From: an uncultured candidatus Porisulfidus sp.
GTDB lineage: Bacteria > Pseudomonadota > Gammaproteobacteria > Poriferisulfidales > Poriferisulfidaceae
Length of the DNA: 64,000 nucleotides
Direction of reading: 5' to 3'
NCBI GenBank assembly: GCA_965199755.1
Contig: CBDASZ010000002.1
Location: forward strand, 1-64,000
Part shown: one piece after another, positions 27,486 to 28,408 of the stretch
Position numbering within the stretch: the first letter of the stretch is position 1
How the letters are laid out: each line of letters opens with the position of its first letter
The notes under the pieces: generated by a model
Seen by the model: only the letters and a program-made list of their open reading frames with translations
The model's database searches: none
What the model was told of the DNA's origin: nothing
Made by a program: the position numbers and the translations under genes

Positions 27486-28408
27486 TTAAACCTCTTCTTC
27501 TGGCAATGAGTCAGACAAGACATCCAACGACGTCAGTGCTACTTCCCATAGAATTTCAGACATGTCTTTCCTTGCCCACGGCTCGCTCTGGAAGTAAAGC
27601 GAAGCGGCCTGAAGCATCTGTATATGCTTGTCTAATTCCACAAATATGTTCCGGCAATAACTGCGGTTGATGTCCATGCCAAAACTACTGGCGGTCACTC
27701 GATCTATTCGGTTTAAGTCTCCCGCATTGTGGGCGACCTTGACCCATCTCCCATCAGGCGCTGCAACGTGGAACGTTGCAGTTGCGAAATTCGATCCTTG
27801 AAGAAAAACGACATAAGGGAAATGAGCCTCATCCAGCATCATGTTTTTAACTTCCTGAATGTTCTTGTGAACGCGCTCGACCGCATTGCCCGCAACCATA
27901 AGGTCTTGATCTCTCCCTCTCCCCTGCTTAATTCCTGCACGAATCTTTTGAACATCATTCCCCCTGGTGTTTCGACTCACTGACAAGAATCACCCGATAG
28001 TTGCCAAAGCGGTCCTGAACTTCAAGCACACCTCCATCTGGCTTGATGGCCGCTTTCTGGACAAACAAAACCTGTCTTTTATTGACAGGTGCGGCACTTT
28101 GATCTGGCTTGATGGCCGCTTTCTGGACAAACAAAACCTTACCCAATCTCGCATCACATGATTGTGAGTCTGTCGTGAATCTCTTTCTTCGGTATTCGGT
28201 AACGATGGCGAAACACCAGACCCGCATATTGGTGCTTCAAAACCACCGTGAGGTCTTCCATGATAGCCCGAATTGATCGGTCATGTGCCTTCGCCTCATC
28301 ACCAAAGATGCCAAAGGGACCACCAGCAAGTTTATGCTGTTTTCCCAGCCTTTGAGACTGGCCAGCGGCTCTTTTTAGCCCATCTGCGCTATTGTTGATC
28401 ATCTGCAT
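27486..28408 (-). pseudogene. EcoRI/RsrI-family type II restriction endonuclease, frameshifted twice, with a 66-bp insertion
   Basis: Three consecutive ORF pieces reassemble into IKPDGG.LEV.D..GNYRVILVSESKHQG / QDLM.AGNAVER.HKN / HFPYVVFLQGSNF / LNRIDRVTA. There are +1 frameshifts near 28165 and in the C5 run at 27960-27964. Confidence 0.9.
28036..28139. repeat. Direct duplication (38 bp identical; 66-bp period) flanking a unique insert; parsable as 36-bp repeat + 30-bp spacer + 36-bp repeat
   Basis: atctggcttgatggccgctttctggacaaacaaaacct occurs at 28036-28073 and 28102-28139. Confidence 0.95.

Follow-up and report, generated by a model that had tools for sequence, protein, structure and literature searches.

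A 66-nucleotide (nt) insertion in a restriction endonuclease gene of a sponge-associated bacterium is probably a rare natural misplacement of a spacer by the enzyme that lays down the memory of a CRISPR system. The gene (R gene) occupies positions 27486-28408 on the minus strand of a 64,000-nt stretch of DNA, hereafter the window, from an uncultured candidatus Porisulfidus sp. (GenBank assembly GCA_965199755.1; contig CBDASZ010000002.1, positions 1 to 64,000), and is read as a three-frame pseudogene of the EcoRI/RsrI family (Pfam PF02963). The insertion takes the form of a direct duplication of 36-38 nt enclosing a unique segment of 28-30 nt. With modest confidence, we regard the 66 bases as the trace left when the bacterium's own type II-C Cas1-Cas2 integrated a single spacer, full-site, at an ectopic position. 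An earlier reading of the window, made from its letters alone and referred to here as the original prediction, had described the site as a candidate natural 'neo-CRISPR'.

On the minus strand, one 36-mer (GTTTTG...CCAGAT) is found twice, at 28137-28102 and at 28071-28036, an identity which was confirmed by script. The two copies are separated by 30 bases (28101-28072), and the period of the duplicated unit is 66 nt, which is in frame within the R gene. Exact identity between the copies is in fact 38 nt, since the 3' end of the insert is also AG. The upstream copy of the target ('neo-repeat' 1, 28102-28137 in the 36-nt parse) is strictly identical as far as 28139, the AG being ambiguous, and the downstream copy ('neo-repeat' 2, 28036-28071) as far as 28073; the spacer-like insert, 30 nt long in the 36/30 parse (28072-28101), is strictly unique over 28074-28101. 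A repeat search stretches the pair to 45 nt (93% identity, spacing 66), and the junction ahead of the first copy is TAAG/GTTTT. A 7-bp hairpin, ACCTGTC-AATAAAA-GACAGGT, followed by TTTGTTTG, spans the border between insert and repeat on the same strand (28070-28090) and was flagged as terminator-like. A stem of at least 7 bp occurs in 0.8% of shuffled inserts (P about 0.008), and in 1 of 29 true spacers of the resident CRISPR array described below. The genome under study (G000) comprises 4 contigs with 1,389,004 bases and a guanine-plus-cytosine (GC) content of 58%; it holds two copies of the 36-mer, both at this site, and one of the 30-mer. Chance cannot be the origin of the 38-nt exact repeat. 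The coordinates, sequences and 36+30+36 layout given in the original prediction, together with the 38-nt strict identity, the TAAG/GTTTT junction and the hairpin (ACCTGTC-N7-GACAGGT), all agree with the sequence and the script.

The insertion is real and recent. Four sequencing runs (X1, X4, X5 and X8) were aligned to window positions 26000-29800. Contigs from X1 (6,821 nt) and X4 (5,314 nt), both sponge metagenomes of another study, are about 99% identical to the window, with about 20-30 single-base differences, and both join 28035 to 28102, with exactly 66 nt omitted and 38 letters fitting both sides. They supply the empty allele that the original prediction had proposed to look for in relatives. 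Both contigs are also one base shorter at 27960 and at 28162, which are the positions of the window's two frameshifts. In X5, the insert is carried by an 88-nt unitig (28044-28131; depth 5), while the 38-nt repeat forms a separate unitig at about double depth (15), with flanks at 6.8 (left) and 12 (right). X5 may be the source sample of the window assembly and is hence not independent support, and its k-mer unitigs are unable to tell whether the empty allele coexists. The depth of the X5 unitigs over 26103-29800 is uneven across the insertion, which may represent noise or a mixture of strains.

Comparison of the predicted protein with its homologues gave the same picture. All 14 aligned homologues are without the 22 additional amino acids (aa) and have a single copy of the motif each. 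Moreover, the same 35-aa spacing, with no insert, was found in 96 of 96 homologues that have both anchor motifs, among 113 stored proteins of at least 200 aa. The nearest protein homologue is 79% identical, and genome contigs include one distant homologue (57% identity). No empty allele was found in reference genomes, the R gene being present at the DNA level in 0 of 40 relatives; the run contigs alone supplied it.

An integrase of the appropriate kind is encoded elsewhere in the same genome. Contig C1 carries a cas9-cas1-cas2 operon, with genes for a type II Cas1 (NCBIfam TIGR03639; 305 aa) and a Cas2 (TIGR01573; 114 aa), both open frames with scores above curated cut-offs, and beside them an open frame for Cas9 (TIGR01865; residues 4-1067 of 1073 aa). 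Cas9 scored above the cut-off in 13 of 41 genomes, G000 included. Because no csn2 or cas4 open reading frame (ORF) lies between the cas genes, the system is read as type II-C. Downstream of cas2 is an array (C1:444239-446368; L003 8240-10369) with 31 copies of a 36-nt repeat, GTTGCGGG...CTACAAT, 29 of which are perfect. Thus, type II cas1, cas2 and cas9 and an array with 36-bp repeats, for which the original prediction had proposed a search, are all present. A gene for tRNA-Ser(TGA) (C1:444115-444202; L003 8116-8203) stops 36 nt before the first repeat, i.e., the oldest and cas-distal one.

Type II-C arrays, as described in a passage of PMC12080349, have a promoter within each repeat and take up new spacers at the last repeat. 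Given acquisition at that end, the leader would here be the 72-nt stretch that separates the last repeat from cas2 (...CTACAAT/ACCTCGGCCGC). This putative leader (C1:446369-446440) starts with a long nested inverted repeat, CCGCAAGT-ATCTGA...TCAGA-ACTTGCGG, which could be either the terminator of cas2 or an element used in acquisition. Several of the long 'spacers' of the resident array enclose fragments of the repeat (CCAAAAAAGATTT, GTTGCGGGTA, CTACAAT, and one repeat minus its A-run). Deletional decay, imprecise integration or an assembly problem could each account for the irregularity of the array. The true spacers had no match in phage records and none above 18 nt in their own genome; since they are without a phage match, the protospacer adjacent motif (PAM) is not derivable.

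The canonical dimensions of such arrays are evident from the same genus, in which three II-C arrays associated with a full-length Cas9 (G015, G011 and G004) all have 36-nt repeats. The spacers of one array measure 30 nt in 27 cases and 29 nt in 3, those of another 30 nt in all 8 cases, and those of the remaining one 30 nt in 6 cases and 31 nt in 2. When pooled, 41 of 46 spacers are exactly 30 nt and 46 of 46 are within 29-31 nt. With repeats of 36 nt and spacers of 30 nt, this integrase lineage has a canonical unit of 66 nt, exactly the period of the insertion. The 36/30 geometry expected by the original prediction therefore exists in the lineage.

Whole-genome scans revealed that repeats of this type are confined to two places. 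An exact direct-repeat scan (at least 20 nt; periods 20-150) returned 33 rows, 32 of which are the CRISPR array and one this site, and a more tolerant one, which required 28 or more matches in 36 at periods of 40-120, returned 34 rows, 33 from the CRISPR array and one from this site. The longest match of the insert to its own genome is 14 nt (blastn-short; E value 0.079), and when it was aligned locally, with gaps, to the 538 nt around it, neither strand disclosed any similarity (P = 0.25 versus shuffles). These results indicate that the insert was not drawn from adjacent or genomic DNA, and its single occurrence in the genome that it is not a repeated element of the insertion sequence (IS) or miniature inverted-repeat transposable element (MITE) type; both outcomes favour the original prediction, which had named such sources as refuting it. 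The GC content of the insert is 47%, and the mean for true spacers is 58%.

Three other origins were considered and rejected. An IS or MITE footprint does not fit a duplication of 36-38 nt around an insert that occurs once in the genome and gave nothing significant in phage records, plasmid records or genomes of the class. Derivation of the insert from an attachment (att) site was likewise rejected. Simple slippage leading to a tandem duplication was dismissed as well, the intervening 28-30 nt being unrelated to either flank (P = 0.25).

In the integration reading that we propose, the integrase would have been loaded with a foreign prespacer of about 30 bp. It would have attacked both strands of the R gene at points separated by 36 nt, where the sequence agrees with the real repeat in its end bases only (5' GTT... 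and ...AT 3'). Gap repair would then have left a copy of these 36 nt on either side of the insert. The outcome would be a one-spacer 'neo-CRISPR' unit, in frame at the PD catalytic motif of the nuclease, next to a methylase partner which is still intact. It is from the geometry that we infer Cas1-Cas2 as the agent and this mechanism, the insert being presumably foreign DNA. The duplication (36-38 nt) equals the length of the resident repeat (36 nt), the insert (28-30 nt) is of spacer length, cas1 and cas2 frames that appear intact by sequence are present in the same genome, and X1 and X4 both show the insert-free allele, in which the target is present once. We favour ectopic integration because it accounts at once for how long the duplication and the insert are, for the 66-nt period, the non-genomic character of the insert and the empty allele, and because the array and this site are the sole repeats of the kind. 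The proposal of a fossil off-target spacer acquisition is partly supported, with geometry, resident system, empty allele and non-genomic insert in its favour, whereas the likeness to a leader, a protospacer with its PAM and a second unit were not found.

The resemblance of the target to the real repeat was assessed against a background of 2.78 million genomic 36-mers, with six parses or orientations. In the 36/30 parse, the neo-repeat and the resident repeat are identical at 15 of 36 positions (P = 0.017 per comparison, about 0.10 after six). The termini GTT...AT are common to both (P = 0.00079 per comparison, about 0.005 after six), although this criterion was chosen post hoc. By ungapped counts among four species of the genus, the true repeats agree with one another at only 11-20 of 36 positions, and what is common to them is GTTG...(A/C)T. 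The neo-repeat ends in CCAGAT, and the real repeat in CTACAAT, so that the former has no TACAAT box. Judged by its sequence, the 66-nt unit is not a working CRISPR, as it is without the repeat-embedded TACAAT box and only 15/36 like the real repeat (the trans-activating CRISPR RNA was not located). A 14/22 leader-like match in the opposite orientation was rejected, its junction falling 4 nt inside the duplicated block. The original prediction had further likened TAAG/GTTTT to the end of a type II-A leader; that comparison is inapplicable to a II-C system, in which, according to a passage of PMC12080349, the leader is on the other side.

Several observations weigh against ectopic integration. 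Overall, the target is only weakly similar to the real repeat, about 515 genomic sites being equal to or better than 15/36, and neither flank of the site, inspected by eye in both orientations, resembles the true leader junction ...CTACAAT/ACCTCGG, so that the alignment of the two junctions suggested by the original prediction yielded no likeness. The resident array is itself irregular: of its 30 spacers, only 5 have a length of 30 nt and 16 are 28-35 nt, within a range of 12-78 nt, and the four leader-proximal spacers measure 32, 33, 35 and 35 nt. Both whole-genome scans found no second ectopic unit, and outside the array no other duplication of 36 bp with a 66-bp period, for which the original prediction had proposed a scan; the event is a single one. 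Neither a protospacer nor a PAM was found in phage, plasmid, viral, metagenome or class-genome searches. Phage and plasmid records gave nothing significant, the latter a single 24-nt match (92% identity; E = 3). An exact search with the 30-mer gave 0 matches in viral_contigs and 0 in metagenome_contigs, in scans of a type that misses protospacers with even one mismatch. In 400 genomes of the class, matches did not rise above chance (best E value 0.0055 per genome). The source with an adjacent PAM that had been envisaged for the 30-mer was thus not recovered from the genome, phage, plasmid or contig sets. The hairpin is a further difficulty, since its 7-bp stem spans the junction of insert and repeat and hints at microhomology. 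If the source DNA contained the whole hairpin, the right junction would lie within at least 4 nt of microhomology, which template switching needs and an integrase does not. Finally, 38+28 is the most parsimonious parse of the sequence, and the 36/30 parse requires a coincidence of 2 nt.

These last points are those that replication template switching, of the type known as microhomology-mediated break-induced replication (MMBIR) or fork stalling and template switching (FoSTeS), would explain. The nascent strand would have left the R gene after ...CCAGAT, copied 28 nt elsewhere, from foreign DNA or DNA absent from the assembly, and returned 38 nt upstream via an AGGT(TTT) microhomology, the 38 nt thereby being copied twice. 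We consider this origin unlikely. The strict 38+28 parse would be free of coincidence, and the hairpin over the border, followed by a T-run, has a terminator-like appearance with a tail overlapping the native AGGTTTTG. The two 1-nt insertions at 23 and 76 nt from the edges of the insertion are also what error-prone synthesis might leave, the clustering of the three lesions in 203 of about 920 nt being not significant by our own estimate (P about 0.15). However, the fillers of such events normally come from nearby own DNA, and none does so here; the microhomology is not demonstrable, the source of the insert not having been found. Furthermore, the 1.39 Mb of the genome contain no other short-range duplication, with or without filler, outside the CRISPR array. 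Nor does template switching predict that, where the CRISPR unit of the genome is 36+30, the period should be exactly 66 or the duplication 36-38 nt long, so that under this explanation the geometry must be a coincidence and a foreign template is required.

The hairpin within the insert would also suit some undescribed process, independent of CRISPR, which adds short hairpin-bearing DNA together with a long target duplication. This seems to us less likely again than template switching, as there is one event only, the insert is unique and not own DNA, and the period of 66 equals the CRISPR unit. It is very improbable that the insertion is an artefact of assembly or sequencing, or an old family-specific feature rather than a recent event. 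X5, the sole run in which the insert was demonstrated, may be the one from which the assembly was made, and the raw reads of X8 have no coverage at the site; yet the Logan unitigs of X5, which are independent of the assembly, hold the insert and place the 38-mer at about double depth, and the empty allele of X1 and X4 differs by exactly 66 nt. Great age is contradicted by the homologues with both anchor motifs, 0 of 96 of which carry the insert.

The assignment of the R gene to the EcoRI family (PF02963), as a pseudogene, is based on its translations. Three overlapping ORFs on the minus strand (28408-28154, 28227-27955 and 27986-27486) each match PF02963 (E values 5.7e-08 to 4.2e-59), and the pieces cover positions 2-55, 63-100 and 98-253 of the 257 in the model. 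Residues P63, D64, E84, S85 and K86 are invariant across 15 aligned sequences, and the duplicated peptide, VLFVQKAAIKPD, has the invariant PD at its end. The first frameshift is an extra A in CACAATCATG (28162-28163, minus strand) and the second an extra G in a G-run (27960-27964, minus strand), and neither is present in the X1 and X4 contigs. Removal of the 66 nt and of both single bases restores a single ORF of 284 aa, which starts with the ATG at 28408 and reaches its stop at 27486, and homologous proteins are 272-287 aa long; removal of the two single bases alone, with the 66 nt retained, leaves an open frame of 306 aa. Because the gene also has the two 1-nt frameshifts, the death of the nuclease is not assignable to the insertion, which by itself keeps the 306-aa frame. 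The insertion may have killed the nuclease or may have entered a gene that was already dead. The suggestion in the original prediction that one defence system has scarred another thus holds in part: the insertion did land, in frame, on the PD motif of a nuclease of the EcoRI family, but it cannot be named as the inactivating lesion.

An EcoRI-like nuclease paired with a PF01555 methylase is the arrangement of RsrI. Directly downstream of the R gene is the gene for the cognate DNA methyltransferase (26491-27480, minus strand; PF01555, N6_N4_Mtase), an open frame of 329 aa. The restriction-modification (R-M) pair is flanked by thrS and by queC-queE-cpoB-pal-tolB (gene names read off translations), and since the R gene is found in none of the 40 relatives at the DNA level, the pair is regarded as an island. 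The X1 contig, which is without the 66-nt insert and without both frameshifts, has 1,499 other letters in the R gene at 27737. This lesion is an independent disruption of the same nuclease gene in another strain. The X4 contig has none of these R-gene lesions, i.e., neither the 66-nt insert, nor the two frameshifts, nor the 1,499-letter insertion. Two more 1-nt indels distinguish the window from the X1 and X4 contigs, at 26369 and 26425, in the intergenic region between thrS and the methylase gene. Far from this locus, positions 460-8160 of the window contain large tandem repeats, with a 10-mer recurring every 567 nt from 460 to 4447 and arrays of 339-354 nt period at 5780-8160, which probably belong to a very large, repetitive gene for a surface protein.

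Spacers are known to integrate off target in E. coli that over-expresses Cas1-Cas2 and in vitro, and natural cases that combine a filled allele, an empty allele and a matching integrase are scarce. A full-text literature search, with supplements outside its scope, found no natural case of type II off-target integration. If the integration reading is correct, the locus provides a natural target sequence with which the site choice and the ruler of a II-C integrase may be tested. It would also document that adaptation carries a fitness-relevant cost, in that a coding gene is struck, and would show one defence system damaging another. The locus also draws attention to a population of sponge symbionts in which the R gene is being lost repeatedly through different lesions. 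One might go on to speculate that the type II-C adaptation module of this small (1.39 Mb) genome has lost fidelity, the irregular array, at odds with the strict 36+30 of three sister species, and the ectopic unit being two faces of one thing and the integrase an endogenous mutagen that erodes other defence genes; we consider this extension doubtful.

With regard to known systems, the host locus resembles R-M pairs of the EcoRI/RsrI type in that the R gene matches PF02963 over its whole extent, the PD and E-S-K columns do not vary in the alignment and a PF01555 methylase gene adjoins; it differs in that the R gene is broken by two frameshifts and a 22-aa insertion. The 66-nt unit shares with canonical II-C arrays, both those of the genus and the resident one, a 36-nt direct repeat that begins with GTT and ends with T and a spacer of about 30 nt. 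In contrast to these arrays, it has two repeat copies only, which match the resident repeat at 15/36 and have no TACAAT box at the 3' end, and it is located inside an ORF, on a contig other than that of the cas genes.

Off-target integration by a type II enzyme has been reported in vitro for the type II-A Cas1-Cas2 of Streptococcus thermophilus (Kim et al. 2019, PMC6895254). In that report, as would be so in our case, the integrase is of type II, the sites favour the border nucleotides of the true repeat and a ruler maintains the length of the repeat. The S. thermophilus events, however, were produced in vitro and were mostly half-site, and the off-target sites there are similar to the leader-repeat junction, which is not so here. 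Moreover, the II-A leader lies on the side of the array opposite to that of the II-C leader, according to a passage of PMC12080349. The closest counterparts are the neo-CRISPR units of E. coli type I-E (Nivala, Shipman and Church 2018, Nat Microbiol; cited for such arrays in bioRxiv 10.1101/148544). Those units are reported likewise to consist of a spacer-length insert in a repeat-length duplication of non-CRISPR DNA, at a target only slightly similar to the repeat, in a genome which encodes the integrase. The present unit is unlike them in having no known protospacer, in its type II-C dimensions (36+30 versus 28+33 for type I-E), in its natural occurrence rather than origin under over-expression, in the existence of an empty allele in wild relatives, and in its position within a coding gene of another defence system.

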